Of a stretch of DNA of 64,000 bases, positions 2,576 through 55,929 are shown in pieces (the stretch's first letter is position 1; every line of letters starts with the position of its first letter). Under the pieces are notes generated by a model that was given only the letters and a program-made list of their open reading frames with translations, did not search any database and was not told the DNA's origin. This DNA is from PVC group bacterium (lineage in GTDB: Bacteria > Auribacterota > Erginobacteria > Erginobacterales > Erginobacteraceae): contig JAZDIV010000043.1 of assembly GCA_043804695.1 (NCBI GenBank), positions 1-64,000 of the forward strand, given 5' to 3'. The position numbers were made by a program, and so were the translations under genes.

Positions 2576-3658
2576 ATGACAGTTCGACCGTACAACTTAT
2601 ACGCCGGACCGGCCATTCTTCCCGGCGAGGTGATGTCACAGGTCCAGGATGAGTTGATGGACATCGCCGGCACCGGCCTCTCGATTCTCGAGTCAAGCCA
2701 CCGGGGGACGGCCTATGCCGATATCAATGACAGCGCCCGGCAGGATCTCCGGGATCTTCTGGGGATCCCCGACAGCTATGCCGTTCTTTTCCTCCCGGGC
2801 GGGGCCAGCCTCCAGTTCGGGATGGTCCCGATGAACTTTCTCCGGGGAGGAAAGGCCGATTATGTGAACACCGGGGCCTGGGCCAAGAAAGCGATCAAGG
2901 AAGCCAAGCTTTTCGGAGAGGTCCACATCGCCGGCAGCTCCGAAGACGGAAATTTCTCCTATGTCCCCGCGCTGAGCGACCTGGACCTCTCCCCCGATGC
3001 GCGGTATCTCCACATCTGCAGCAATGAGACGATCGGGGGCATCCGCTGGCCCCGATTCCCCGAGACCGGGGACATCCCCCTGATCGCGGACATGTCTTCT
3101 GAGATCTGCAGCCGGAAGATCGATGTCTCCCGTTTCGGCATGATCTACGCCGGGGCGCAGAAAAACCTCGGTCCGGCGGGGGTCACCGTCGTCATCATCA
3201 GCGAGAAGATGCTAAAAAAATGCCCGGACGGACTGACCACGATGCTGAACTACCGGACCCACGTGGAGAACGACTCCAACTACAACACCCCCCCGGTTTT
3301 TTCCGTTTACATGGTCGGCCTGGTCCTGAAATGGCTGAAAAAACGGGGCGGGATCGAGGCGATGGAAGCGGCCAACAACGAGAAGGCCGCTCTCCTCTAC
3401 GGCATGATCGACGGCACCGATTTCTACCGGGGGACCGCGGCGGCGGAAGACCGCTCGATCATGAACGTCACCTTCCGCCTTCCCACCGAAGAACTGGAAG
3501 CCGCCTTCATCGCCGAGGCCAGGAAAGCCGGCTTTGTCGGGCTGAAAGGACACCGCTCGGTGGGCGGGATCCGGGCCTCCATCTACAACGCCTTCCCGCT
3601 GGAAGGGGTGGAAGCTCTGGTACATTTTATGCAATCTTTTGAGAAAAAATATGCTTAA
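2576..3658 (+). CDS. serC: Phosphoserine aminotransferase
   Basis: N..AGPA, SHR, GGASLQF, NETI.G, DMSS, YAGAQKNLGPAG (PLP Lys), YNTPP, GHRSVGGIRASIYNA; GGAGG RBS. Confidence 0.97.
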   Translation: MTVRPYNLYAGPAILPGEVMSQVQDELMDIAGTGLSILESSHRGTAYADINDSARQDLRDLLGIPDSYAVLFLPGGASLQFGMVPMNFLRGGKADYVNTGAWAKKAIKEAKLFGEVHIAGSSEDGNFSYVPALSDLDLSPDARYLHICSNETIGGIRWPRFPETGDIPLIADMSSEICSRKIDVSRFGMIYAGAQKNLGPAGVTVVIISEKMLKKCPDGLTTMLNYRTHVENDSNYNTPPVFSVYMVGLVLKWLKKRGGIEAMEAANNEKAALLYGMIDGTDFYRGTAAAEDRSIMNVTFRLPTEELEAAFIAEARKAGFVGLKGHRSVGGIRASIYNAFPLEGVEALVHFMQSFEKKYA

Positions 3659-3668
3659 AATGTAATCG

Positions 3669-3696
3669 CACCACGAAGGGCACGAAGTTCACGAAG
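3669..3696 (+). repeat. CACGAAG-family 9-bp-period repeat
   Basis: CACCACGAAGGGCACGAAGTTCACGAAG; related copies at 14119, 14302, 21796, 21838, 30613 and at both IS110 flanks. Confidence 0.8.
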
Positions 3697-3883
3697 TAAA
3701 ATTATTTTTCCTGTTTCATTTTTCAAACCAAGGAGCCGGGGCAGAAGACTTTTTACGCCTTTTGCGCCTTTGTGCGGCTGCATAGAGGACGAGGCGGGAG
3801 AACTTCCCTATTCAATCACATTCAATCGTCTGTTGAAGTAAGGGGGCGAGGGGGGGATATTTAATCCTTGAGGAAAAAATAAC

Positions 3884-8137: not shown

Positions 8138-9745
8138 TTATCGATCAACAAAAGACCCGGTAGGCTCCCCTTTCGCCGCTTCCCTGATCTCCTGCTGCTT
8201 TTTAATCACCTTGGAAAAAAGAGAACCGGAGCCGGCCTGTTCGAAGATCTGAGCCAGGCAGGCGGCGATATCCTGGGATTCGCTTATGTCCGGTTCGTGG
8301 GCGAACTGGTATCGGACACTAATACTTATCCCGCTGATCGACTTCAGCCGGAGCCGTTCAATGGGGTTGTCCGGCGCCCGGCCGGGATGAACCTTCGGCG
8401 ACGTCCCGCTGGCACCGATCAGAACATCGCCATTCTCGAACCGGGCATCCAGAAAACTCAGCCGCAGCTCGCGGCGGCATAAGTGGAGGATCTCGAATGG
8501 ACTGATGGTGGCGGACCGGGAGATCAGGCTCTGGATCGCGTAGCGGGAAAACGCGGCCAGCACGGTGTTCCGGCGGCGGCGGTAAAAGATACGCCCGATG
8601 GCAGCCCGGCGGAGGTAGCCGGTCCACCAGGCGACCCCGACCAGGGTGACGACGAGAATAAACCCGGGGAGCCAGAACCACCCCGAACCATCCGGAATGA
8701 TCAGGAACAGGTAGCCCGCGCAAGCCAGCAGAAAGGTAATCGCGTATAGGATCAGGACGACCTGCTTGCCGGTAAATCCTTTCTCCAGAAGACGGTGATG
8801 GGTGTGATGACGGTCACCGGCGAAGATCGGCACCCCCCGGACAAATCGCCTGATCATTGAGAGCAATGTTTCAAAGATGGGGAAGCTCAGTGCCAGCATC
8901 GGAGCCATGATGATCAGGGCGGTCTCGACTTTGTAGGTCCCCATCAGGGTGATGGTCGCCAGCGCGTAACCGATAAACATGCTCCCGGTATCCCCCAGGA
9001 ATATGCTGGCCGGGGGGAAATTGAAGATTAAAAATGCCGCCAGGCTTCCCGCCAGGGGAGCGCAGGTAAAGACGATAAAAATATTCCCGGTCGTCGCCCC
9101 CAGCGCCACCAGGGTCAGGCAGGCGATCAGGGCGACGCCGGTGGCCAGGCCGTCCAGTCCGTCGATAATATTGAAAGCGTTGATCAGGCCGACAATCCAG
9201 AGAATGCTGATGATCACACCGAGGTTGGGGTTGAGTTCAACCTGGCCGACCAGCGGTATATAGAAGGACTCAATCACGCAGCCGGTGGCGCAGATGAAAA
9301 TGGCGATGGCGAACTGGCCCAGAAGCTTGACCCGGGCCCGCATCCCCCTCAGGTCGTCGAGGAGGCCCAGCGCCAGGATGGCGATCCCCCCTGCCGCCAG
9401 GATGATAAAACTGCGGCTGAAGGAAGCCCGGCCGAAGGCAAAACTCATCAGAGGATCAAGCCAGGACGGGTTCAGTCGGTAAATCAGTTCCCAGTTACGG
9501 ACGATCAGCGAGCCGGCCAGGCCGGAGCAGACATAAAAGACAAGCACCGGGACCGAGATCCCCAGGCCGCCCAGGAGAGGTACCTCGGACCACGAGACCC
9601 GGCGGTACCCGCCCCGGTCGATCGCCCCGGTTTTCCGGGCCAGCAGCTTGATCAAAGGGGTCATGGCCGCGGTCAGCGAGCCGAACAATAAAAAGAGTAC
9701 GACCAGGACCAGGGGATTTTCCAGATATTGCGGTAACTCAATCAC
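8138..9745 (-). CDS. wecA: WecA/TagO-type polyprenyl-phosphate GlcNAc-1-phosphate transferase (MraY family) with C-terminal extension
   Basis: PLLGGL, GLLDD, NAFNIIDGLDGLA, FNFPPASIFLGDTGS, DRHHTHHRL. Confidence 0.85.
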   Translation of the reverse strand: MIELPQYLENPLVLVVLFLLFGSLTAAMTPLIKLLARKTGAIDRGGYRRVSWSEVPLLGGLGISVPVLVFYVCSGLAGSLIVRNWELIYRLNPSWLDPLMSFAFGRASFSRSFIILAAGGIAILALGLLDDLRGMRARVKLLGQFAIAIFICATGCVIESFYIPLVGQVELNPNLGVIISILWIVGLINAFNIIDGLDGLATGVALIACLTLVALGATTGNIFIVFTCAPLAGSLAAFLIFNFPPASIFLGDTGSMFIGYALATITLMGTYKVETALIIMAPMLALSFPIFETLLSMIRRFVRGVPIFAGDRHHTHHRLLEKGFTGKQVVLILYAITFLLACAGYLFLIIPDGSGWFWLPGFILVVTLVGVAWWTGYLRRAAIGRIFYRRRRNTVLAAFSRYAIQSLISRSATISPFEILHLCRRELRLSFLDARFENGDVLIGASGTSPKVHPGRAPDNPIERLRLKSISGISISVRYQFAHEPDISESQDIAACLAQIFEQAGSGSLFSKVIKKQQEIREAAKGEPTGSFVDR

Positions 9746-21897: not shown

Positions 21898-23490
21898 CTA
21901 ATTATCCGAACTAAGACTTCCCGCGCGGTCCCAGTATCGAGATGGGATATTCCTTTGCGGAAGAACGGACGGATCCATCTGATTTTTAAGCCGGTAATTA
22001 AGCGTCTCCCCGTCCGCCACCCAGGCGGCATCCCCGATAAAGGGCGTGAAGCTGAATATCTCTTCCCGGGAGAAAATCCACTGGTAGGTTCCCCGGAAGA
22101 ACCGGCCCATATCTTCGTTCCAGCAGAGAGACGGAAGATAGGACGGGATCCCGTCCGGCATCGCCAGCGGTTGCTGCGGGGAAATCTCTCCCCGCTTGAT
22201 CCCCCCCTGGATCCGCCCCAGGAGCGTCTTCAGGGGGGTCATCTCAGTATCAATCAGGTTCACTGCCCCCCGGACCGCGATGACATTGAAGACAACGGCC
22301 AGGATCAGCAATAAACTGATCCCCCTTCTCACCGGACCGGACCGGACCAGTCGATCGACGGCCAACGCGCCCATCAGGACCAGGAAGGCGTTGGCGATAT
22401 ACTGGTAACGGAACTGGAGGAAGAGATCAGTGAAGTTTTCGGTGGTGGAACGGCCGAGCGCGAGGACGAAGAAACCGGCCGCGTACAGGAAGAAAAGCAA
22501 TCCCAGGCCGGCGGGGATCTTCCGGCGCGGTCTCCGGAAGGAAGCAATCAGGACGAATAGGACAAGCGAGACCGACCCGGTCGCGGTGACGACCGTCCGC
22601 AGGAGGCCCGGGCTCCAGGCGGCGGCCGGGCCGCCCATCTCGATGTTATGGGTCACCCGCAGAGGCAAGGCCAAGAAAGGAAGCAGGTTGATCAAAATCC
22701 CGTTATAGAGGAGGTTGAAGAAGACCGAGCAGAGGCTGAGGAAGACGTCCCCGGCGCCGGGAGCGGAGAGGGAGCCTGATGTGTGGGGAGCGGTCCGGGT
22801 GACGAGAAAGACCAGCAGATACATCCAGTAAACCGCTGCGGTCATCAGCACCGCCGGGCGGCGGCGACCGGCAATCCGTCTCATTGAAATCAGGAGGAGA
22901 CCGAGCGGCCAGAGAAGAAAGAGTTCCAGACAGAGGAGAGAGAAGAGAAACAGGAAGCCGATGGGAACGAGGAGCAGCTTGTTTCCGCCGTCACTGTACC
23001 GGAGATAAATGATGATCCCGAAAAGAAAGGCAGAGAAACTGAGCGGCATCGTGACATGAAAGGTCCAGGTGACAATATCGGCATGAGTGAAGAGAACGGC
23101 GAAGAGGGAGAGAAAGAGAGCCAGGGTACCCGTTCCGATGCCAAGCCGCTTTCCCAGCAGATAAAGAAGAACAATGCTCAGGAAATAACCGGCGAAGTTC
23201 ACCAGGTGATAGGGGAGAAAATCCGCTCCGAAAAGGCGGTGTTCCAGGTAGAGGACCGGGTGGGCGACGGGGCGGAAGGTGCCGTCCCGCCAGGGATCGT
23301 GGTTAACGACAAATGAGAAACCAGGGGGACCGGGAGAGGCGTCAACCAGGTGGAAGGCAAAGAGCGCCGACCACCAGTCGCTCCGGGGAGGGTTCGTAAA
23401 GGAGGGGGCGAAGATGATGATGAGAACGGCCAGAAGAAGCGCGAAGTACCCCGCGATCTTCTCTCGGGCCATATATTCATCAGCTCTCAT
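21898..23490 (-). CDS. Polytopic membrane protein, putative GT-C (family A)
   Basis: NPPRSDWW..NHDPW..GTFRP, QFRYQY, LCWN..GTYQWIFS shared with 23862..25388 and 54173..55861. Confidence 0.6.
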   Translation of the reverse strand: MRADEYMAREKIAGYFALLLAVLIIIFAPSFTNPPRSDWWSALFAFHLVDASPGPPGFSFVVNHDPWRDGTFRPVAHPVLYLEHRLFGADFLPYHLVNFAGYFLSIVLLYLLGKRLGIGTGTLALFLSLFAVLFTHADIVTWTFHVTMPLSFSAFLFGIIIYLRYSDGGNKLLLVPIGFLFLFSLLCLELFLLWPLGLLLISMRRIAGRRRPAVLMTAAVYWMYLLVFLVTRTAPHTSGSLSAPGAGDVFLSLCSVFFNLLYNGILINLLPFLALPLRVTHNIEMGGPAAAWSPGLLRTVVTATGSVSLVLFVLIASFRRPRRKIPAGLGLLFFLYAAGFFVLALGRSTTENFTDLFLQFRYQYIANAFLVLMGALAVDRLVRSGPVRRGISLLLILAVVFNVIAVRGAVNLIDTEMTPLKTLLGRIQGGIKRGEISPQQPLAMPDGIPSYLPSLCWNEDMGRFFRGTYQWIFSREEIFSFTPFIGDAAWVADGETLNYRLKNQMDPSVLPQRNIPSRYWDRAGSLSSDN

Positions 23491-23861
23491 ATCCTGCTCC
23501 CATCCTTTTTCATAAACATATGCTCCTCGCTTAAGTGAGAAATTAGCGTTTCGCGCTGTCTTCCGTGGGAGGGGTTTTCAACCCCGATTCTGCCCACCCC
23601 AGGAATCGGGCTTAAAAAGCCCTCCCACAGAAACTCATTGTCCCGATTCCTTATTCAAAATGTTCATTACCGTGCTCCCGATATATAAAGAGGAAATCCC
23701 CCAGCAGTGAGATATTCATTAAAACAGGTTTTTCCCAGCACTCCATCATTCCAATACCCCAGTTCCGCCGTCGTAGTCATGGGCTACTATGGCGAAGGCG
23801 GCTAGTCCATATTACATCAGCCCATAATTATGCATACCCCTGATTCTACTGATCCACCCCC

Positions 23862-25388
23862 TCATCGTTTTACATACACACCCTCATTCAGGTCCATTGT
23901 CCAGTAAGCATCTCCCTGGCGCCGGCTGAAACAGGCCAGTTCCGCCGGCGAGAAGAGCCACTGGTAGGTGCCCCAGATCCTACTCCCCATCCCCCGGTTC
24001 CAGCAAAGACGGGGGAACGAGGTGGCAAATCCGTCAGGGAGATAGAGACGACGTTCGGGGGTGATCTCGCCGCGGTCCATCCCGGTCCGGATGTTCTGTA
24101 AAAGCTCCTTCAGCGGGGCGAGACATTTGGTGACATTCTCGACGTGGCGGTGGGTATAGTAGCCGTTGACGAAAAAAACGGCCAGCAGGATGGCGAACAG
24201 GACCGCCCTCCCCTTCCGGGCGGGCCGGAGGAGAGCGGAGACGACAATCGCCGCCAGGAGTACGAGGAGGGCGTTGGGGATGAGCTGGTAGCGGAACTGG
24301 CGGAGGATGTGGCTGAAGTCACTGGTGATCGAACGGGCGGCCACCAGCAGTGAGAAGTTGCTGAGATAGAGAAAACCGAGAAAGGCGGCGGCCGCCAGGG
24401 CCCTCCATTCTTTCCTCCGGACGAGGAGGAAGACCAGCAGTCCGGCCAGGAGCAGGACAACGGCAGCGGCAGCGTACGCCAGCGGAACCAGCCAGGGCGG
24501 CTTTCCGAGGGGGATCACTCCCAACATTTCACTGTATCCCCGGTAGCGGCCGGGATAAGCGAGAGCGGGAATGGCATTGACCCCGATACCCGTATAGAGA
24601 AGGTTGAAGAGGGAGAAGACCGCCCCGGTCAGGAAGGATATCATTGAGGGTGATGACAGCTCGCCGGGGAGGTGAGAGGCGGACCGCGTGAGCAGGAAAA
24701 CCGTTCCGTAAAGAAGATACAGGACTCCGAGCAGGAAAACGGTGGAACGGATGGGCCGCCGGGGCCGGCCAGCCGGCCGGCGGGTAAAGAGCAGGATCAG
24801 GACCGCCAGGGGCCAGCAGCAGAACGTCTCGTAGCAGAGCAGGGAAAGAAAAAAAAGCAGGCCAGCGGGGAAGAGAAGGAGCGTCTTCCCTCCCTCCAGG
24901 TAACGGATGTAGAGCAGGAAGGCCCCGATGAAACCGGCGAAGCCGGCCACGAGGAAAATGTGAAAGGTCAACGACAGGACGTCGCAGTGGGAGTAGAGCA
25001 CGGCCCAGACGGCCAGGAATCCCCCCAGTTCCAGCCCCCGGGCGCCCAGCCGCCGTCCCAGGCGGAAGAGGAGGATCAGGAGGAGACAGTAACAGGCAAA
25101 ATCGGCGAGATGATTGAAGATGAACCGGCCCCCGAAGGCCAGGTGCTCGAGATAGAGGAGGGTGTAGGAGAGAGGCCGGAACGTGCCGTGCTGCCAGGGG
25201 TCGTGGTTGACGACGTAGGGCCAGACCGGGAGGTCCGGGTCGGCCCGGACCTGGTGAAAGGTGAAGAACGCCTCCCAGTAGTCCACGTGAGGCGGGTTGG
25301 AGAACGTGGGCAGGATGAGGATCCCGAGGAAGAGAAAAAGGAGAGCGAAGCCGGTTACTGACGCGAGGCGCTTTCTCATGGCGACCAC
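23862..25388 (-). CDS. Polytopic membrane protein, putative GT-C (family A)
   Basis: NPPHVDYW..NHDPWQHGTFRP, QFRYQ, LCWN..GTYQWLFS. Confidence 0.6.
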   Translation of the reverse strand: MVAMRKRLASVTGFALLFLFLGILILPTFSNPPHVDYWEAFFTFHQVRADPDLPVWPYVVNHDPWQHGTFRPLSYTLLYLEHLAFGGRFIFNHLADFACYCLLLILLFRLGRRLGARGLELGGFLAVWAVLYSHCDVLSLTFHIFLVAGFAGFIGAFLLYIRYLEGGKTLLLFPAGLLFFLSLLCYETFCCWPLAVLILLFTRRPAGRPRRPIRSTVFLLGVLYLLYGTVFLLTRSASHLPGELSSPSMISFLTGAVFSLFNLLYTGIGVNAIPALAYPGRYRGYSEMLGVIPLGKPPWLVPLAYAAAAVVLLLAGLLVFLLVRRKEWRALAAAAFLGFLYLSNFSLLVAARSITSDFSHILRQFRYQLIPNALLVLLAAIVVSALLRPARKGRAVLFAILLAVFFVNGYYTHRHVENVTKCLAPLKELLQNIRTGMDRGEITPERRLYLPDGFATSFPRLCWNRGMGSRIWGTYQWLFSPAELACFSRRQGDAYWTMDLNEGVYVKR

Positions 25389-46692: not shown

Positions 46693-48435
46693 CTATTCTT
46701 CCCTCACGAGTACGTTGAGAACCACCAACAGGCAGGCCAGGACAAAAGCCATCAACATGGCGATCAGGATTATCCGTGTCCGGGGCGGGCCAACCTTGAC
46801 CGGATCGGTCTGCGCAGTATAGAGAAGAACCGTTCCGCTCCGGGAGACGTTCTCCATCGATACCCGGAGGAGCGCCACTTCTTCCGCTTTGGCGGCCAGG
46901 GAGGAATGGACCTGGGTCAGGTTCTCGATGTCACGCTTCTGCCGGGCCAGCTGGCTTTCGCTGGTGAAGACGATCTTCTCCAGCCCGGCGATTTCCCGCC
47001 CCACCTCGTCGAGCTTGGCTTTTTTCGCCGCCAGCTTGACCTCCATCCTGGCCAGTTCTTTTTCACTGGCTTCAAGCTCCTGACGATCCGTGTTGTAGGA
47101 TTGTTCGTAATATGCCTGCAATGCCTGGTCCTTATTGACGGCGTTCTGGAGGTTTTTCCTTTGCGACTCCAGGGGGGCGATCTCCCGGGTCAGCTTGCTG
47201 ACCTCGACCCGCAGGGTCTCCAGTTCCTGCTCCCCTTTGGAGATCTTGTTCTTCAGCCCGGTTATCTCGCCCGAGAGCCGGATCATTTCTTTCTGTGTCT
47301 CTTCATAAATCGGGTTGCTGCTCTCAGTCTTCATCAGCGGCAGCTGGCCGGTGTCCTTCAAGCCTCCCTGCAGGTAGGTTTCCCAGAGCTTGTCGTCCCC
47401 GATCGCCTTGCTGAGGACGATCTTATCACTGATCTTTGACAGCTCCTCCTGGAGCTTGGCGTAGGTCGGCTCCAGGCTGAAAAGGCTGGTCCGGGCCTGG
47501 AGGGTCTCCCCGGAAATGTCCTCGATCTGTTTCTTCTTGATCTTGACCATTATGTACTTGTGATTGAGCTGGCTTGTCTCGTCAAATTCAGCCAGCGTTT
47601 GTTCGTTGCTCCTCAAGCTCCGGATGGTCCGGGCTATCCGTCCGGCCAGGGCGGCTGAGTCCGGCAAGGTGTACCCGGGGTCCTCCGCGAGCTTCCGGGC
47701 GAACACCTCGCCGGACCAGGACCCCTCGATCTCCTGCCCGGTCACGTTTTCCCTCAGTTGCTTCAGAAGCGCCTTCCTGGTGACAACCTGTTCCTCCAGG
47801 GAAAGAACCTCCAGGGACAGTTCGGAATACAGCTCCTCATTCTGTTCCAGCAACAGTTGTTTTACGGTCAGATCTGCTTTCAGCCTGGCCTCGGTGTACT
47901 GATCCTCGTTCTCGATCAGTGACTTGCTGACCTTCTCGAAGATGTTGGTGGTGAAAGTACCCAGATCATCGACACCGGCCTGATAAATGCCTTTCGTCTT
48001 CTGCAGCACAACTTGCGCCCAGCGGTTGGCCACGGCCATGGAGAGTTCCGGGTCGGAGGTAGTAGCATTCAACGTGACTATCGGCAGGAGCAGTCGGTCC
48101 CGGCTCTGGTCGTGCTTCACCGAGGTCGAGAGCATCTCCTGGAAACGGCGGAAGTCCATATCTTCCCTGATGATGCCATCCTTGACCAGGTCCTGGTATA
48201 GATCCCACTTCACCCGGGTGGACTCGACCAGGGAGCGGAGGGTCTCGACGGTGAGCGGGGGGATCTCTCCCGTCAGCGTAACTTCAGGCCGCTGAACGCT
48301 GATCGCCGCGCTGGCGCTGTACTTGTTCGAAATCAGCAGCGTAATCGCCGCCGTCAACGCCCCGACCGCCAGGGTGATGATCAGAAGGCGTATCCTGTAT
48401 TTGTGGAGTATCTTGATAATCCCGATCTCATTCAT
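46693..48435 (-). CDS. Wzz/GumC-type polysaccharide co-polymerase (chain-length determinant) with long coiled coil
   Basis: N-terminal TM, YSASA, DPE.....AN, long coiled coil, P..VGPPR followed by C-terminal TM; GGAGG RBS. Confidence 0.82.
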   Translation of the reverse strand: MNEIGIIKILHKYRIRLLIITLAVGALTAAITLLISNKYSASAAISVQRPEVTLTGEIPPLTVETLRSLVESTRVKWDLYQDLVKDGIIREDMDFRRFQEMLSTSVKHDQSRDRLLLPIVTLNATTSDPELSMAVANRWAQVVLQKTKGIYQAGVDDLGTFTTNIFEKVSKSLIENEDQYTEARLKADLTVKQLLLEQNEELYSELSLEVLSLEEQVVTRKALLKQLRENVTGQEIEGSWSGEVFARKLAEDPGYTLPDSAALAGRIARTIRSLRSNEQTLAEFDETSQLNHKYIMVKIKKKQIEDISGETLQARTSLFSLEPTYAKLQEELSKISDKIVLSKAIGDDKLWETYLQGGLKDTGQLPLMKTESSNPIYEETQKEMIRLSGEITGLKNKISKGEQELETLRVEVSKLTREIAPLESQRKNLQNAVNKDQALQAYYEQSYNTDRQELEASEKELARMEVKLAAKKAKLDEVGREIAGLEKIVFTSESQLARQKRDIENLTQVHSSLAAKAEEVALLRVSMENVSRSGTVLLYTAQTDPVKVGPPRTRIILIAMLMAFVLACLLVVLNVLVREE

Positions 48436-49412
48436 TTTAACCTCCGGTGTCGCGTCTTGACATTGGACATAATTTTAATTAAATCACTGACCTCTTGATC
48501 GAGCTTCTTGTCAGATTCTCTTTCTTCTTCGAAACGTTTAATCGCTTTTCCACAGGCGGTATATGTTATACCTCCCAAAACCTGCCCTAATTCATGTAAA
48601 TTGCAGTCGGAATAGGTATACCCTAAATAGAGAGCGACCTTTTTAGGGATGTTATTTCTTGTTCTTTGCAGGATCGTTTCTCTATCGATCCCGAAATAGT
48701 CCGCAACGGCTTCAATAATATCATCCAGCGTCGGCACCTTCAACAACTGACGATATGAGGGAATTTCAGAACTGATCTTCTTTCCATCCAAACCAGCGAG
48801 GGCTTCTTCGACAAATTCTTCACTACCTAAAATAGTTCCGGCTTTTATTCCCTCAAATGGATTGTTGACAGAATTATCCCCCTCCACAAAATTCTTGTAT
48901 AGTACAATAGCCACATTTCTGTCCCGGGAAAATGTATTTAGAATATCATCTCTCGAAATCCAGGTATCTCTATGAGTCAGGAAATCCCGGTAACTGCTCC
49001 AGGGGAACAACTGTGGTTTGCTGACCATCCCCGCTCGAACGGGATTGAGATGGATATAGCGACTGACCACGAGAAGATATTGTTCCTTTTCGATCAGAAT
49101 TCCTTTATACCGTCCCTGCAAAACATGACCGATCCGTTTATGCCGGATATTGAAGTAATTCGTATAAGCCACATTGATAAAGTGCATGGACCTGGATAAA
49201 TTTCCTAACGGGGTCTCCAGGAGCAGGTGGTAATGATTGGTCATAAAGATATAGCCATGGATCCGAATTCGGAATTTTAAAATTGCATTTTGTAAAATGG
49301 TTATAAGTCGACGTCGATCAGCATCTGCAAGGAAAATCGGTTGCGCCCCGTTTCCACGGGCCGTCACATGATAAAACGCTCCCGGAAATTCTATTCTTAG
49401 AGCTCTTCCCAT
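48432..49412 (-). CDS. Y1/HUH (IS200-like, RAYT-type) transposase with C-terminal DnaA-C-like HTH
   Basis: YHVTARGN, MTNHYHLL (HUH), GHVLQGRY, YIHLNPVRA, WSSY; C-terminal IIEAVADYFGI...R....PKKVALYL...L.ELG..LGG. Visibly AT-rich. Confidence 0.88.
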   Translation of the reverse strand: MGRALRIEFPGAFYHVTARGNGAQPIFLADADRRRLITILQNAILKFRIRIHGYIFMTNHYHLLLETPLGNLSRSMHFINVAYTNYFNIRHKRIGHVLQGRYKGILIEKEQYLLVVSRYIHLNPVRAGMVSKPQLFPWSSYRDFLTHRDTWISRDDILNTFSRDRNVAIVLYKNFVEGDNSVNNPFEGIKAGTILGSEEFVEEALAGLDGKKISSEIPSYRQLLKVPTLDDIIEAVADYFGIDRETILQRTRNNIPKKVALYLGYTYSDCNLHELGQVLGGITYTACGKAIKRFEEERESDKKLDQEVSDLIKIMSNVKTRHRRLK

Positions 49413-49490
49413 GGCCTGTTTCATTCTTTGATTAATTATTTATTAAGGCCATGGTATTAAATATTATGTCCAATGTCAAGACGCGACACC
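48446..49490 (-). mobile_element. RAYT-like element bounded by perfect 28-bp inverted repeats
   Basis: GGTGTCGCGTCTTGACATTGGACATAAT at 48446-48473 and its reverse complement at 49463-49490. Confidence 0.78.
49451..49479 (-). promoter_or_regulatory. Sigma70-type promoter for the transposase, -35 lying inside the inverted repeat
   Basis: Minus strand TTGACA-N17-TACCAT. Confidence 0.7.
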
Positions 49491-51733: not shown

Positions 51734-53149
51734 ATGAACGTCCTGTTGATCAATCCTCCCTTCGATCCGGAGGAATCGGTCGGGGAGAGCAGATCGGTCC
51801 GTTTTGTCCTCAACATCACGCCCCCTTTAGGGCTGGCTTACCTGGGAGCGGTTTTGGAGCGGGCGGGACACCAGGTCCGGATCGTCGATTACACCGCCCG
51901 CTCCCCCTATCCTCCCCTCCCCAAGATTATTCAGGAGTTCGAGCCGAACTTAATCGGCCTGACCGCTACCACCCCCTCATTTGAGAGCGCCTGCCGTCTG
52001 ACCCGGGAACTCCGTAAACTCCGCCCCGGCACCCCTCTTATGCTGGGGGGCGCCCACGTCACCTGCGCCCCAGAATCGGCAATGAAGAGCGGACTTTTCC
52101 AGGCTGGTGTGCTCGGCGAGGGGGAGGAGACGGTGGTCGAGCTGGCGAAGCATCTGGAAGATGGACGTTTCGTCAATCTTCATCGCGTGTCGGGCATCAT
52201 TTTCTCCGAGGACGGGGATTGGCGCCGGACTCCCCCCCGTCCTTTTATCCTGGACCTCGACTCCCTCCCCTTCCCCGCCTATCACCTCCTCCCACCTTTG
52301 AGATACTACCACCCGACACCGGCATCCTACCGGCAGCTCCCGGTCGGGATCCTGATGACCAGCCGGGGCTGTCCTTTCAAGTGTACTTTCTGCGACCGGG
52401 CTATCTTCGGCAACACCACTCGCTTTCACAACACGCAAAGAGTGCTGGACGAGGTTGAGTGGATGCTCAATGAAGTGGGGGCGAGAGAGATTCGCTTCTT
52501 CGACGACACTTTTACACTAAAACGGGAACGGGCGGCCGGGATCTGCGACGGAATCCTGGAACGGGGACTGAAGTTCCCCTGGACCTGCCTGACCGCCGTC
52601 AGGGCGGTCACCCCGGAACTGCTCCGTAAAATGAAAGCGGCCGGCTGCTGGCAGGTCCTCTATGGGTTGGAGTCCGGCGACGACCGGATGCTTAAGCTAT
52701 TGGGAAAGGGGAACACCGTCGAAGAGAACCTCAACGCCATCCGGTGGGCCAGGGAAGCAGGGCTGGAGGTGCGGGGGGACTTCATCGTGGGAACACCGGG
52801 GGAGACGATGGAGAGCCTGGAGCGAACGCTCCGCTTTACCTTGGAGACGGGCCTTGATTACGCCCATTTCAACAAGTTCACGCCCTTCCCCGGGACCGAA
52901 CTCTACCACCGGCTGGTGGCGGATGGGTACTCCTTCGACTTCACTCGGGGATGCAGCATCCTCGATCACGGGGCGCTCCTCTTTGTTCCGAAGTCACTCG
53001 ACCGGGAGGAGTACCGCCGCTGGCTCGACCGGGCCTTCAAGAAATTCTACCTGCGCCCTTCCCACATCCTAAAGCGGCTGATGGCGATCCGGACCTGGAC
53101 CCAGCTTCGGGGGCAGGCCCGGGGCGCCTTCGCCATCGCCAGTCTATAG
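51734..53149 (+). CDS. Cobalamin-binding radical SAM enzyme
   Basis: PPLGLAYL, GGAH, GEGE B12-binding domain; TSRGCPFKCTFC (CxxxCxxC); GLESG; FTPFPGT. Confidence 0.92.
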   Translation: MNVLLINPPFDPEESVGESRSVRFVLNITPPLGLAYLGAVLERAGHQVRIVDYTARSPYPPLPKIIQEFEPNLIGLTATTPSFESACRLTRELRKLRPGTPLMLGGAHVTCAPESAMKSGLFQAGVLGEGEETVVELAKHLEDGRFVNLHRVSGIIFSEDGDWRRTPPRPFILDLDSLPFPAYHLLPPLRYYHPTPASYRQLPVGILMTSRGCPFKCTFCDRAIFGNTTRFHNTQRVLDEVEWMLNEVGAREIRFFDDTFTLKRERAAGICDGILERGLKFPWTCLTAVRAVTPELLRKMKAAGCWQVLYGLESGDDRMLKLLGKGNTVEENLNAIRWAREAGLEVRGDFIVGTPGETMESLERTLRFTLETGLDYAHFNKFTPFPGTELYHRLVADGYSFDFTRGCSILDHGALLFVPKSLDREEYRRWLDRAFKKFYLRPSHILKRLMAIRTWTQLRGQARGAFAIASL

Positions 53150-53263
53150 GTGTCGCGTCTTGACATTGGACATTACTTTCCACCTTCAATTTTATCCGAT
53201 AGAATATGAATCAAAACCTGGAAAATATCTTGTAATGTCCAATGTCAAGACGCGACACCTATA
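53145..53263. mobile_element. Non-autonomous doublet (REPIN/MITE-like) of the RAYT inverted repeat
   Basis: 32-bp perfect IR TATAGGTGTCGCGTCTTGACATTGGACATTAC (53145-76 and 53232-63) with a 55-bp spacer. Confidence 0.82.
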
Positions 53264-54166
53264 TTATCGCCAGATTATTAACTCCAATTCCAGATCAATT
53301 CCGGATCTGTCTTTGACCTTTCTCCGGGCCAGTTGAATCAATTCTTCTACTTCAGCGAACCGGGCGGAACCCCGGTTGACGATAATGTTGGCGTGCTTAT
53401 CCGATATCTGGGCGTCCCCGATCCTTTTCCCTTTCAATCCCGCCGCCTCAATCAACCGTCCGGCGTAATCACCGGCAGGATTCTTGAAGACCGACCCGGC
53501 GCTGGGGTACTCGAGCGGGAGGAACTTTTTTCTTTGGCTGAGAACGTCCTTCATCTCTGATTGAATCGCGACCGGATCCCCGGGACAAAGGCTGAACTCC
53601 ACCTCCAGGATCACTCCCCCCTCCTTTTGAAAACGGCTGGAACGGTAACCAAACCGGCATTGATCGGCTTTCATCTCTCTCTCCCCGACGCAGGGCTGAT
53701 GGACCCGGACCCTGCGGACAACCCCGGAGACCTCCTCCCCTCTCCAGCCGGCGTTCATCACCGCCGCCCCCCCGACCGTCCCCGGAATGCCGGCCGCGAA
53801 CTCCAGCCCCGATAACCCCCTCTCCGCCGCCGCCTGGGCGAGCCGGGTTAACGCCATCCCGGCCGGTGCCGTCACCCGGGTCCCCTGAAAGGCCAGATCT
53901 TCGGGCCGCCATTTCGGTTTAATGACAACGCCTTCCACTCCCCGATCGTCCGCCAGCAGGTTGGTTCCTCCTCCCAGGATCCGGAAAGAGAGGTTTCTTT
54001 CGCTCAGCAGATCGAGGCACCTGATGAGATTGTCTCTGTCGGCGGGGATGATGAAGATCTCCACCGGCCCGCCGATGGCGAGGGATGTATGCTTCCGCAT
54101 CTCCTCGCCCGGTGTCGCGTCTTGACATTGGACATTACTTAAGATGCTTTGTATATCTTTGCTCAT
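53264..54166 (-). CDS. murB: UDP-N-acetylenolpyruvoylglucosamine reductase
   Basis: HTSLAIGG, LGGGTNLL, GLEFAAGIPGTVGGA..MNAG, FGYRSS, PSAGSVFKNP, SDKHAN..VN. Confidence 0.95.
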   Translation of the reverse strand: MSKDIQSILSNVQCQDATPGEEMRKHTSLAIGGPVEIFIIPADRDNLIRCLDLLSERNLSFRILGGGTNLLADDRGVEGVVIKPKWRPEDLAFQGTRVTAPAGMALTRLAQAAAERGLSGLEFAAGIPGTVGGAAVMNAGWRGEEVSGVVRRVRVHQPCVGEREMKADQCRFGYRSSRFQKEGGVILEVEFSLCPGDPVAIQSEMKDVLSQRKKFLPLEYPSAGSVFKNPAGDYAGRLIEAAGLKGKRIGDAQISDKHANIIVNRGSARFAEVEELIQLARRKVKDRSGIDLELELIIWR

Positions 54167-54212
54167 GAGTACCTATTTGAAGCGGTAATGTCCAATGTCA
54201 AGACGCGACACC
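54111..54212. mobile_element. Second doublet of the RAYT inverted repeat, overlapping the murB start and the upstream gene's 3' end
   Basis: 28-bp IR at 54111-54138 and 54185-54212 with a 46-bp spacer containing a stop and a start codon. Confidence 0.82.
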
Positions 54213-55861
54213 GTTTCCAGGTCGATTATCCATTCCGCTTGATCAGGATCAAAAGAGAAGGCCCTCAGCTCGGATGGTGAAAATACCCACTGATACGTTC
54301 CCTTCATGAACCGGGCCATGTCATGGTTCCAGCAGAGAGGAGGAAGGCTCCGGGCGATGGCGTCATCAATATAGATCGGCCGCTCCGGGCTGATCCGGCC
54401 GTCCCCGATCCCGGCTTTGATATTCGAAAGCATCCGGTCCAGAGGAGCCAGCTGTTGATTGACCACCGAGAGATGGGCGGTCAGGAAAAGAAGGTTGAGC
54501 GCCGCTACCAGAGCTAACAAGAGATAGAGGAGATTCCGCATCCGGGGAAGGGCTCTTACCAGCCGGTCGGCGGCCAGGAGCGCGATCAGGATCACCAGGG
54601 CATTGGAAATATATTGATATCTGAACTGCCGGAGAACGTAGATCGGCAGGTTGGTGGCCATCCGCCCATGATACAAGGCGAAGGTCGAGCTCAACAGCAG
54701 ATAGAGCGAGAACACGAAAGGGCCGGGGTTGCGCGGGCGACGCTTTTTCCAGAGGAGAAAGAGCCCTCCGATGGCAAAGAGGATGATCAGACCGCCGGCG
54801 ACCGCCAGAAACCGGTTGATCTCCGGGACGGCGTCCCGCCAGAGGCTGTCCAGATCGACCGCCTTGGAGATGATCAGCGGCGGCGCGACCAGGAGATTGA
54901 CCGGCCCGTCCGAGCGGCTGGCGAGCAGGTCCCGCAGGACCGGGCTGGCTTTCAAAAAAACCCCTCCCTTTCCGATATTGTCCTGAATGAGCGCCGGGCA
55001 GGTGAGAAAGGGAGCGATGTTGGCAATAACCCCGTTGAAGACGAGGCTGACCGCCGTCACGGCGAGGCTGAACCCGATCGCAGAAAGGGAGAAGAAGGCC
55101 GCCGGTTCGGCGGCCGGAACGGTCACCGCGCTTCGGGAGCGGGCAAAGGCCATGATCAAACCGTAAAAAAGATAGAGTCCGCCGACCGCCATCATAGAAG
55201 CCCGGAGCATCGCCCGGAACCGTTCTGGTCCCCCCTCCGGTCTCCGGCGGGCAAAGAAAAGAATAAAGACCGCCGCCGGCCAGGGGATGAATACCTCGTA
55301 GCAGAGGAGGCCCGGGAGAAACAGAAGAACGGCGATCAGCAGGTCTTCCAACCGTCCGGAGCGAAGGTATCTCCGGTAAGCGAGAAACCCCAGCAAGAAA
55401 AGGCAGAAACCGACGATCACGGCAAGGTGGAACGTCCAGGCAACAATATCGAAGTGAGAGAAGAGAAAGGCGAAAACAGCCAGGAAGGACATGGTTATCG
55501 CTCTCCCGCATCCGAAACGGCGGGCGACACAATACATCAGGACTATGCTGAAACAGTAAAAACCGAAGGTCACGGCATGGAACCAGAAATAGCGGGCCCC
55601 GAAGAAGAGGTGGAGGGAGTACAGAACCAGATGAAAGAGAGGCCGATAGGTCCCGTGCCCCCAGACATCATAGTTCGCGATGTTAACAATCCGTTCGAGA
55701 GCGGTTAGATTCTGATAGCCGTGAAAATGGTAGAAAAGACACCAGTAATCGCTTCGGGGGGGGTTGGAGAATGTCGGAAGGAAAATGATCAGCAAGGCCC
55801 CGAAGAGGAAGAGAAAATAGACCGCAACAACCAACTGATTCCGGGATGCTGTTTTCTTCAC
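54173..55861 (-). CDS. Polytopic membrane protein, putative GT-C (family A)
   Basis: GTG start with GAGG RBS; NPPRSDYW..NYDVWGHGTYRP, QFRYQY, LCWN..GTYQWVFS. Confidence 0.6.
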   Translation of the reverse strand: MKKTASRNQLVVAVYFLFLFGALLIIFLPTFSNPPRSDYWCLFYHFHGYQNLTALERIVNIANYDVWGHGTYRPLFHLVLYSLHLFFGARYFWFHAVTFGFYCFSIVLMYCVARRFGCGRAITMSFLAVFAFLFSHFDIVAWTFHLAVIVGFCLFLLGFLAYRRYLRSGRLEDLLIAVLLFLPGLLCYEVFIPWPAAVFILFFARRRPEGGPERFRAMLRASMMAVGGLYLFYGLIMAFARSRSAVTVPAAEPAAFFSLSAIGFSLAVTAVSLVFNGVIANIAPFLTCPALIQDNIGKGGVFLKASPVLRDLLASRSDGPVNLLVAPPLIISKAVDLDSLWRDAVPEINRFLAVAGGLIILFAIGGLFLLWKKRRPRNPGPFVFSLYLLLSSTFALYHGRMATNLPIYVLRQFRYQYISNALVILIALLAADRLVRALPRMRNLLYLLLALVAALNLLFLTAHLSVVNQQLAPLDRMLSNIKAGIGDGRISPERPIYIDDAIARSLPPLCWNHDMARFMKGTYQWVFSPSELRAFSFDPDQAEWIIDLETVSRLDIGHYRFK

Positions 55862-55929
55862 CCTGTAACCTCTTTTGTCTTTCGCGCTTCCGATGACGGA
55901 CACGGTGGGGCACAACAGCACCGGGGACG

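Follow-up and report, generated by a model that had tools for sequence, protein, structure and literature searches.

The stretch of DNA analysed here (the window: 64,000 nucleotides of contig JAZDIV010000043.1, from a PVC group bacterium) contains a 25-bp repeat that is likely to be the terminal inverted repeat (TIR) of an element of the TIRYT type, a TIRtron. Besides the two TIRs flanking the transposase gene, copies devoid of such a gene lie at gene borders or inside genes, and two pairs of them bracket murB, which encodes UDP-N-acetylmuramate dehydrogenase. One of these pairs encodes the C-terminal tail of a membrane protein and, probably, nine MurB residues. The window belongs to a metagenome-assembled genome (MAG) of 155 contigs, 88% complete (G000), which was compared with eight other genomes of the same family (G001 to G008) and with more distant relatives.

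The Repeat and Its Gene-Less Pairs

Six exact copies of the 25-mer GGTGTCGCGTCTTGACATTGGACAT occur in the window, starting at 48446, 53149 and 54111 on the forward strand and at 49466, 53235 and 54188 on the reverse strand; the expected number is 0 and none of 100 shuffled sequences gave any. The genome-wide count, proposed as a check in a preliminary description of this DNA, amounts to 14 copies, 12 exact and two with two mismatches. A search of the genome with the 17-base outer core brought four additional matches against three for the reversed control, i.e., chance level.

Two inward-facing pairs without a transposase gene lie on either side of murB, at 53149/53259 (pair 1) and 54111/54212 (pair 2). 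Exact matching and alignment bear out their earlier description as copies of one repeat separated by unrelated spacers of 55 and 46 bp. Their arms are identical over 28 bp (the 25-mer plus TAC, or GTA on the other strand), and the spacers, which measure 61 and 52 bp between the 25-mers and 55 and 46 bp without TAC/GTA, are not related (local alignment p 0.45-0.72). The spacers of all three pairs found in G000 have a GC content of 30-35%, against 58% for the genome. They are unique, with only chance matches of at most 20 nt elsewhere in their own genome, and unrelated to the inner ends of the full element (p 0.3-0.99). In G003, one of six comparisons between pair spacers shows a clear similarity.

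A single arm is not a hairpin: its folding energy is -4.7 kcal/mol (z -0.25) and 74 of 200 shuffled sequences fold equally well. It is not self-complementary and carries GTAG at neither end. The pairs fold very stably, with -57.1 kcal/mol for pair 2 and -63 and -67.5 kcal/mol for the two strands of pair 1 (z -10 to -16).

The inner flanks of the genome copies are TAC (five), AAT (four), TAT (three) or AAG (two), and no conserved target tetranucleotide is definable. Pair 1 has TATA on both sides, as had been noticed before. Since TATA is its own reverse complement, it is more readily understood as prolonging the inverted repeat than as a duplicated target; its candidacy as a target-site duplication could not be decided, TATA being palindromic and ATA being common ahead of repeat ends (11 of 18 in G003, 4 of 14 in G000). 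No 2-nt duplications were found around single copies.

Read outward, the TIR is open in all three frames and offers an ATG in two of them. Read inward, it offers TGA in one frame, and TAG in a second one where the TATA extension is present. Embedded and border positions would be survivable because the TIR is in this way friendly to coding. The total length of a pair is divisible by three in five cases out of seven (102, 111, 99, 93 and 108 bp; the others are 130 and 98 bp), when about 2.3 would be expected.

The Cognate Transposase Gene and Its Home Site

The full element lies at some distance from murB. Its gene (48432..49424, reverse strand) encodes a protein of 330 aa with a Y1/HUH core similar to that of the transposases associated with repetitive extragenic palindromes (REPs), the REP-associated tyrosine transposases (RAYTs), and a C-terminal helix-turn-helix (HTH) of the DnaA_C type. 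The Pfam models Y1_Tnp (PF01797; 33.8 bits, cut-off 23) and Bac_DnaA_C (PF08299; 36.4 bits, cut-off 31.5; residues 234-296) both recognize it. The HYH motif is found at residue 64 and the catalytic tyrosine, within RYIHLNPV, at residue 123. The gene is framed by a left TIR (48446..48470, forward strand) and a right TIR (49466..49490, reverse strand), which are exact inverted copies (25/25) of the 25-mer; the right one is followed by TATTTTAAATTGACA, upstream of a GT2 gene. The left TIR codes for MSNVKTRH, among the last residues of the TIRYT protein, which ends with …IMSNVKTRHRRLK*; together with its flank, it codes for the last 13 residues. The TGA stop overlaps the ATG of a wzz-like gene (ATGA), which suggests that the TIRYT gene is co-translated with the polysaccharide genes.

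The pairs had been regarded as doublets of a RAYT repeat. This holds in so far as a RAYT-like Y1 gene owns the repeat; the TIRs are non-palindromic, so that the system is a TIRYT/TIRtron and not a strict REP/REPIN.

The repeat family and the gene occur together. G000 holds one full copy of the TIRYT gene and, among the nine family genomes, only G003 has a cognate gene as well, the two proteins being 59% identical. The best matches in six other genomes are at most 45% identical to TIRYT, and G008 has none. In the same way, the repeat reaches at least 14 copies only in G000 (14) and G003 (15), while G001 has one exact copy, G004 two copies with two mismatches, and five genomes none. The arms of G003 have their outer 19 bases in common with those of G000 and differ in the inner six. 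In a public collection with one genome per species, a 17-mer of the repeat is multi-copy only in the record corresponding to G003; the remaining matches are single, presumably near the chance number for a 17-mer by our own estimate.

The G003 orthologue of the TIRYT gene also adjoins a wzz homologue. Furthermore, in all five relatives inspected by eye (L021-L025), relics of the form …TGTCAAGA… lie in the gap between wzz and the GT2 gene, upstream of the latter, and the TIRYT gene is absent there. In four of these relatives, TTTTAA(A)TTGACA comes next to the relic, clearly in G002, G005 and G006 and in a looser form (ATATTGACA) in G001; G004 is without it. The home-site relic of G004 keeps 23 of the 25 bases of the TIR. 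The TIRYT element thus appears to have been settled for long in a conserved polysaccharide cluster, between its wzz and GT2 genes.

G004, which is without a cognate TIRYT gene, also shows a TIR copy with two mismatches (L141, 1438-1462) as the start, MSSVKTPH, of a MiaB-like open reading frame (ORF) located directly downstream of a dnaJ-like ORF.

The Junction between the Membrane Gene and murB

The second pair spans the junction of two genes read on the reverse strand, a multi-pass membrane protein gene (54173..55921) and murB (53264..54166; longest frame 300 aa). The arm lying in the membrane gene (54185..54212, reverse strand) holds its last codons, VSRLDIGH, plus Y from TAC. The spacer (54139..54184, reverse strand) comprises the (Y)RFK tail, the TAG stop (54175-54173), 6 nt, the murB ATG (54166-54164) and codons 2-10. 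The arm lying in murB (54111..54138, forward strand) covers codons 10/11-19, (S)NVQCQDATP.

The membrane protein ends with ...AEWIIDLET-VSRLDIGH-YRFK*, where the arm codes for VSRLDIGH and the spacer for YRFK and the TAG. The VSRLDIGH tail was found in none of 10 database homologues and is also absent from the orthologues of relatives and from two paralogues. The tail is repeat-coded, and the earlier claim that this gene has its stop within the doublet and a repeat-encoded tail, VSRLDIGHY, stands, with VSRLDIGH from the arm and Y from TAC. When the eight arm-coded residues are left out, the tail reads W-IIDLET-YRFK*, with Y at W+7 (Y, F or L in 8/8 homologues) and R at W+8 (R or K in 4/8).

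On the other side of the spacer, a conserved motif of MurB orthologues, F-R/Q-G-E-I-R…E-E-L, is replaced in G000 by arm-coded residues. The spacer-coded MSKDIQSILS resembles, in register, the MurB N-termini of G001, of a phylum-level relative (L020) and of P0002. This last, the closest database MurB (63% identical), has MINNLFKLIS-DIQCPD- in the place of the MSKDIQSILS-NVQCQD- of the window, and its N-terminal match tops 119 homologues (score 34, median 14). MurBs with a short N-terminus occur in the family (G006 and P0009). It is fairly probable that translation of MurB starts at M1 and that the arm is translated as codons 11-19, NVQCQDATP. The preliminary description had placed the murB ATG in the doublet and SNVQCQDATP among repeat-encoded residues: the ATG is indeed in the spacer and codons 11-19 in the arm, their translation being likely, with M23 as an alternative start. 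Comparison of both termini with orthologues did not reveal the same terminal peptides, since the tail is absent from them and the MurB motif is replaced in G000; the one exception is P0002, with SDIQCPD at the same place.

Because its spacer looks like a native junction, pair 2 probably did not arrive as one unit. On balance, we lean towards the view that the 52 bp between its arms are the native stop/start junction and that the arms became embedded on either side. A decayed repeat was sought in the murB 5' regions of relatives, where G002 gave 15/25 (p 0.07) and five others were at chance. A scan of metagenomes for the MurB of a closer relative with an empty site returned 53 loci, the best only 47% identical.

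The membrane protein (the "family A" of the preliminary description) matches no Pfam or NCBIfam family and has paralogues in the genome. The genome contains at least five full-length members of this family, which shares the motif PSFSNPPRSDYW. Three of the members belong to the window, and every one lies among or close to polysaccharide genes; they include those at 22012-25376 and 54173-55921 of the window and at 21205-24448 of contig C27.

The junction and the gap between murB and the neighbouring radical SAM gene are hot spots in relatives. G004 and G005 have 1.2-1.9 kb of extra ORFs at the junction (L024, 7391-8449; L022, 6900-8500), and a fragment of the murB 3' end is duplicated in G005 (L022, 11185-11363). 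In G006 (L025, 9011-10177), the upstream membrane gene is mostly deleted and its C-terminal remnant runs in frame into murB, without a stop.

The Gap between the Radical SAM Gene and murB

Pair 1 occupies the entire gap between two convergent stops. The gene for a B12-binding radical SAM protein (51734..53149, forward strand) uses the first G of the repeat in its TAG stop, and its product ends with ...GAFAIASL, as in relatives. The left arm (53149..53176, forward strand) consists of the 25-mer plus TAC. It is followed by the spacer (53177..53231), of 55 bp between the 28-bp arms, with 30% GC over 61 bp and unique in the genome, and by the right arm (53232..53259, reverse strand), whose end is 4 nt away from the stop codon of murB. 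The search for a U-tract terminator was negative.

Just downstream of murB, G001, G003 and G004 have another palindromic element (…TTTCTGNCGATNNTCAGAAA…; L021 ~8570-8605, L026 ~3600-3760 and L024 ~9350-9400), of which G000 has one degenerate copy elsewhere. The spacer of pair 1 was compared with this palindrome as its possible counterpart in G000: the two are alike by eye at both ends but not significantly similar (p 0.23-0.61). The palindrome of G004 is significantly similar to those of G001 and G003 (p <=0.001).

Other Copies in the Genome and in Relatives

Of the 14 genome copies, 12 are inside an ORF or at most 5 nt from the end of one. On contig C141 (29485-29649), a TIR pair and a third copy replace the whole gap between pgk and tpiA. 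Pgk there ends with ALTD|GVAS*, of which GVAS* is arm-coded, and TpiA starts with MSRRDT|KPLIAGNWK, of which MSRRDT is arm-coded. In seven relatives, Pgk has AL[ST][DE] (ALND in G006) followed by 1-3, mostly 2-3, other residues, and TpiA starts with MRKPL… in six and with MSTRKPL in G007. Two ORFs of contig C65 end in the repeat (GVAS* and CRVLT*), and one paralogue of the membrane protein may start in it (MSNVKTRH).

One copy lies in the middle of a gene, in a membrane paralogue (contig C27, 23523-23547; YVQCQDATP). It adds no length compared with orthologues and paralogues, and it is identical (25/25) to the other eleven exact copies. Among seven orthologues from other genera (L147-L152, L155), five match 14-19 of its 25 bases at the same codons and the remaining two only 7-8, the gene-wide mean identity for 25-nt windows being 16.4-17.9. 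In the five, the peptides at this site are YLKWRDAAP, NLQLQDVTP and RLRLKDATP. The copy thus resembles orthologous coding DNA in its behaviour. A filled/empty comparison of this copy with G001 was unusable, the G001 orthologue being frameshifted there.

In G003, the RNase P RNA gene (RF00010, 198 bits) contains two TIR pairs (L052, 781-878 and 1201-1293), one in the P3 apex and the other in a hairpin that separates the 3' strands of P2 and P4. Against the genes of G000 (L143), G001 (L144) and G004 (L142), they stand out as clean insertions in apical loops. These two pairs, 340 bp apart, have 28 nt of their spacers in common (score 56, reached in 0 of 300 shuffles).

The Position of murB

The identity of murB is given by its domains, FAD_binding_4 (PF01565) and MurB_C (PF02873), and by two equivalog models, NF010480 (311 bits, cut-off 259) and TIGR00179 (217 bits, cut-off 144.5). 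A MurB query has one match in the 88%-complete assembly and a single place in 38 of 40 relatives. For both MurB and the membrane protein, the nearest named homologues come from Candidatus Auribacterota MAGs.

In seven of the eight loci fetched from relatives, murB stands beside the same radical SAM, degT and GT2 genes; five of these seven also have wzz, and four the upstream membrane gene, of which G006 keeps a remnant. A dcw row is found on contig C141, where three ORFs separate murC (TIGR01082, 415 bits) from a downstream gene resembling ftsZ (137.5 bits, under the cut-off); murB is absent from this row, which has no room for it. The remark that murB is outside its usual dcw context is thus correct. 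The family evidently inherited this position from its ancestor, independently of the repeat, because synteny is kept in relatives, murB is single and the dcw row is without it. The relocation of murB by the repeat, which had been put forward as a possibility, is ruled out by the same observations, and the second murB for which a dcw cluster was to be checked does not exist in this assembly.

Recent Spread or Maintenance in Place

A recent, REPIN-like spread had been proposed. This is not established: arm identity cannot prove recent spread, because relics occupy the home site in all five relatives inspected and because orthologous codons of other genera match, in place, the copy embedded in the C27 gene. 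No dispersed copy was found at a position shared by G000 and G003. Identical arms, unrelated spacers and perfect families found only with a TIRYT gene rather suggest that arms could be maintained in place, by conversion or exchange, than that they result from a recent burst. A more sober alternative is turnover in which intact arms are selected for.

A more speculative proposal, to which we give limited credence, is that TIRYT maintains single arms and not doublets. A length-neutral exchange or conversion of arms on single-stranded DNA would keep them perfect while the spacers evolve as host DNA and, without TIRYT, the sites would drift as coding DNA. If true, embedded arms would persist in housekeeping genes (murB, tpiA, pgk, membrane proteins) as long-lived passengers that code for protein, and their maintenance would be a transposase-driven concerted evolution of a kind undescribed for REP or TIR repeats. 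A literature search that combined REP repeats with "concerted evolution" or "gene conversion" brought up no paper on REPs and no description of arm-wise maintenance and, judged by title and abstract, the papers that mention Auribacterota or Aureabacteria include none on repeats.

Proposed Mechanism and Alternative Explanations

TIRYT could act in trans on single-stranded DNA, in which two arms would pair as a stem of 28-32 bp, by analogy with the biochemistry of IS200/IS605 and RAYT proteins. Insertion would prefer exposed single-stranded loops, as the two RNase P cases of G003 suggest, and selection would let persist only the copies that leave both neighbouring genes functional. In RNA, pair 1 could form a stable hairpin at the 3' end of both convergent transcripts, and, in pair 2, a 29-bp stem would carry in its loop both the upstream stop and the start of murB, which would fit translational coupling.

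Several observations weigh against this interpretation or parts of it. The mobility of the element in this lineage and its action in trans are drawn from analogy. The protein reaches only 72.9 bits with the NCBIfam model REP_Tyr_transpos (NF047646; cut-off 80), its alignment spanning 4-146 of the 146 model positions, and the beginning of the TIR, GGTGTCGC, has 6 of the 8 positions of the published GGGGWSAS motif. None of the three comparisons between the spacers of the three G000 pairs reveals a similarity (p 0.45-0.85), their arms being identical. As for the embedding of the arms around a native junction, cutting out 54111-54212 (102 bp) joins the membrane gene and murB in frame, and the ~105 bp of the G001 junction (stop, 24-nt gap, ATG and first 19 codons) have no counterpart outside pair 2. 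Moreover, a frame is preserved only if 24 or 27 nt are counted as inserted, and the copies share 25 nt (28 nt within subfamilies), which is no multiple of three; the pairs of G003 plainly act as units. Finally, M23 is available as a start downstream of the arm, and three of the first 75 MurB homologues listed (P0006, P0022 and P0043) are annotated with only three residues before the motif.

Some of these points favour a recent jump of pair 2 in one piece, as a REPIN-like unit whose own spacer now gives the stop and the start. Such behaviour is seen in G003, whose two RNase P pairs have 28 nt of spacer in common and are plain insertions relative to G000, G001 and G004. The low GC content of the three G000 spacers and the five pair lengths out of seven divisible by three also agree with it, and two separate arm insertions of 25 or 28 nt would each shift the frame. 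However, once the unit is excised, the native stop, gap, ATG and first 19 codons are all missing, so that unit insertion would have to be followed by a second event, the loss of ~105 bp of native DNA. Skipping the eight arm residues restores the homologue-like Y-R at W+7 and W+8, and the distance between MSKDIQSILS and the HTS motif is the canonical one (H26, likewise in G001 and L020). P0002, whose N-terminus is similar and which also has SDIQCPD, speaks against the event being recent, and identical arms of 28 bp with dissimilar spacers are not what a unit copying itself predicts. The unit jump, with or without its subsequent loss of native DNA, is therefore considered unlikely. Embedding of the arms around a native junction, which we prefer, would still lose its MurB part if translation started at M23 (54100-54098, reverse strand), 10 nt beyond the arm: the arm and the ATG of the spacer would then be an untranslated leader and only the terminus of the membrane protein would be repeat-coded. 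The homology to close relatives begins at residues 20-27 in six of seven family-genome matches, the TIGR00179 alignment begins at residue 23, and the purine-rich GGGCGAGGAG precedes M23. Di Nocera et al. (PMC3733652) also caution that many N-terminal "intragenic" REPs are misannotated starts. Against this, GAGGAG directly abuts the ATG, with zero spacing, and from M1 the reading frame runs open across the arm, over 22 codons. This start is only 6 nt past the upstream stop, an arrangement compatible with translational coupling. In the NF010480 alignment, residue 6 of the query faces position 6 of the profile; the N-terminus is as long as in G001 and L020 (H26), and P0002 retains a similar peptide in frame. 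A start at M23 thus seems doubtful.

Two further explanations concern the pairs as such. In a MAG of 155 contigs, 88% complete, they could be assembly artefacts (palindromic chimeras or collapsed repeats). The same architecture is, however, found on three contigs with unique flanks and spacers, the frames of five housekeeping or conserved genes run correctly across repeat borders, and the independently assembled G003 has the same arms, pairs and singles. Repeats of 25-28 bp are also shorter than usual assembly k-mers. An artefact is highly improbable. The inverted repeats might otherwise be the recombination sites of an inverton controlling polysaccharide genes, as could be evoked by perfect inverted repeats around short AT-rich segments in a surface-polysaccharide locus, by the TTGACA contained in the arm and by one promoter-like match that begins in the spacer of pair 1. 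Yet the promoter-like matches number 2 for 0.6 expected, with none in pair 2, and the repeats end a Y1/HUH gene and not one for a tyrosine or serine invertase. Copies also occur at pgk/tpiA, inside ORFs and in the RNase P RNA of a relative, and flipping the spacer of pair 2 would destroy the murB start and the upstream stop. An inverton is accordingly very hard to reconcile with these copies.

Significance and Comparison with Known Systems

The system is a further example of a published kind, a TIRYT/TIRtron found in an uncultured PVC-group lineage with an unusually intimate overlap with housekeeping genes. It illustrates the extent to which a genome can tolerate transposase-linked repeats: one repeat family provides the pgk stop, the tpiA start, the end of a membrane protein and probably, in the only MurB, nine residues, and in a relative it occupies two loops of the RNase P RNA. 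It is also a warning for annotation, as starts and stops adjoining such repeats may be repeat-borne. For the REPIN/RAYT field, a TIRYT system with perfect arms and unrelated spacers makes the choice between recent spread and maintenance in place testable. The identity restricted to the arms and the length-neutral embedding are its unexplained features.

IS200/IS605 elements transpose as single strands by the "peel and paste" mechanism of Y1 HUH enzymes. The element of the window shares their catalytic family and shows, as a further likeness, no evident target duplication at the single copies; the hairpin-loop insertions of G003 fit a single-stranded target. It differs from them by the lack of subterminal hairpins and of a multicopy autonomous element, its ends being true inverted repeats.

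The system also resembles that of REPINs and RAYTs (Bertels & Rainey 2011, PMC3116915, and later papers). In both cases, a single-copy and apparently vertically kept Y1 gene is flanked by the repeat, gene-less inverted doublets can fold as long hairpins, and the repeat family is found only alongside its cognate gene. In contrast, the unit of the window is non-palindromic, has no GTAG tag, amounts to 14 copies only and comes with a protein missed by the NCBIfam RAYT model. Moreover, the spacers of its doublets are not conserved and its single copies are as perfect as the doublet arms.

Di Nocera, De Gregorio & Rocco (2013, PMC3733652) described REPs that supply stop codons and REPs inside ORFs, including those of essential genes, and summarised the Rickettsia palindromic elements. 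As in these cases, the repeats of the window give stops to flanking ORFs, lie in frame within genes and code for N- or C-termini. Unlike the intragenic REPs presented there, one pair spans two genes, giving the tail of one and probably nine N-terminal residues of the other, and embedded copies of the family add no length compared with orthologues.

The best counterpart is found in the TIRtrons of the same authors (PMC3733652), i.e., TIRYT genes flanked by TIRs and not by REP palindromes. Some of these TIRs form dispersed families (singles, dimers and groups), the C-terminal HTH of the proteins is of the Bac_DnaA_C, HTH_23 or HTH_28 type, and the GGGGWSAS motif is present in the majority of published TIRs but not in all. 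Quentin et al. (2018, PMC6006769) defined the equivalent subclass 2.1 of TnpA_REP-like Y1 proteins, with a Bac_DnaA_C-like C-terminus, near whose genes they report no REP-like repeats. By its domains, motifs and TIR architecture, the element of the window is assigned to the TIRYT/TIRtrons, probably of the subclass 2.1 kind. It has a long RAYT-like Y1 protein with HUH and tyrosine motifs and a C-terminal Bac_DnaA_C-like HTH, non-palindromic TIRs that flank the gene, one of them overlapping its 3' end, and a moderate dispersed TIR family of singles, dimers and groups. In comparison with the TIRtrons described in these sources, it belongs to a new lineage and its TIR agrees only in part with GGGGWSAS; its arms, identical around unrelated spacers, lie in frame within housekeeping coding DNA.

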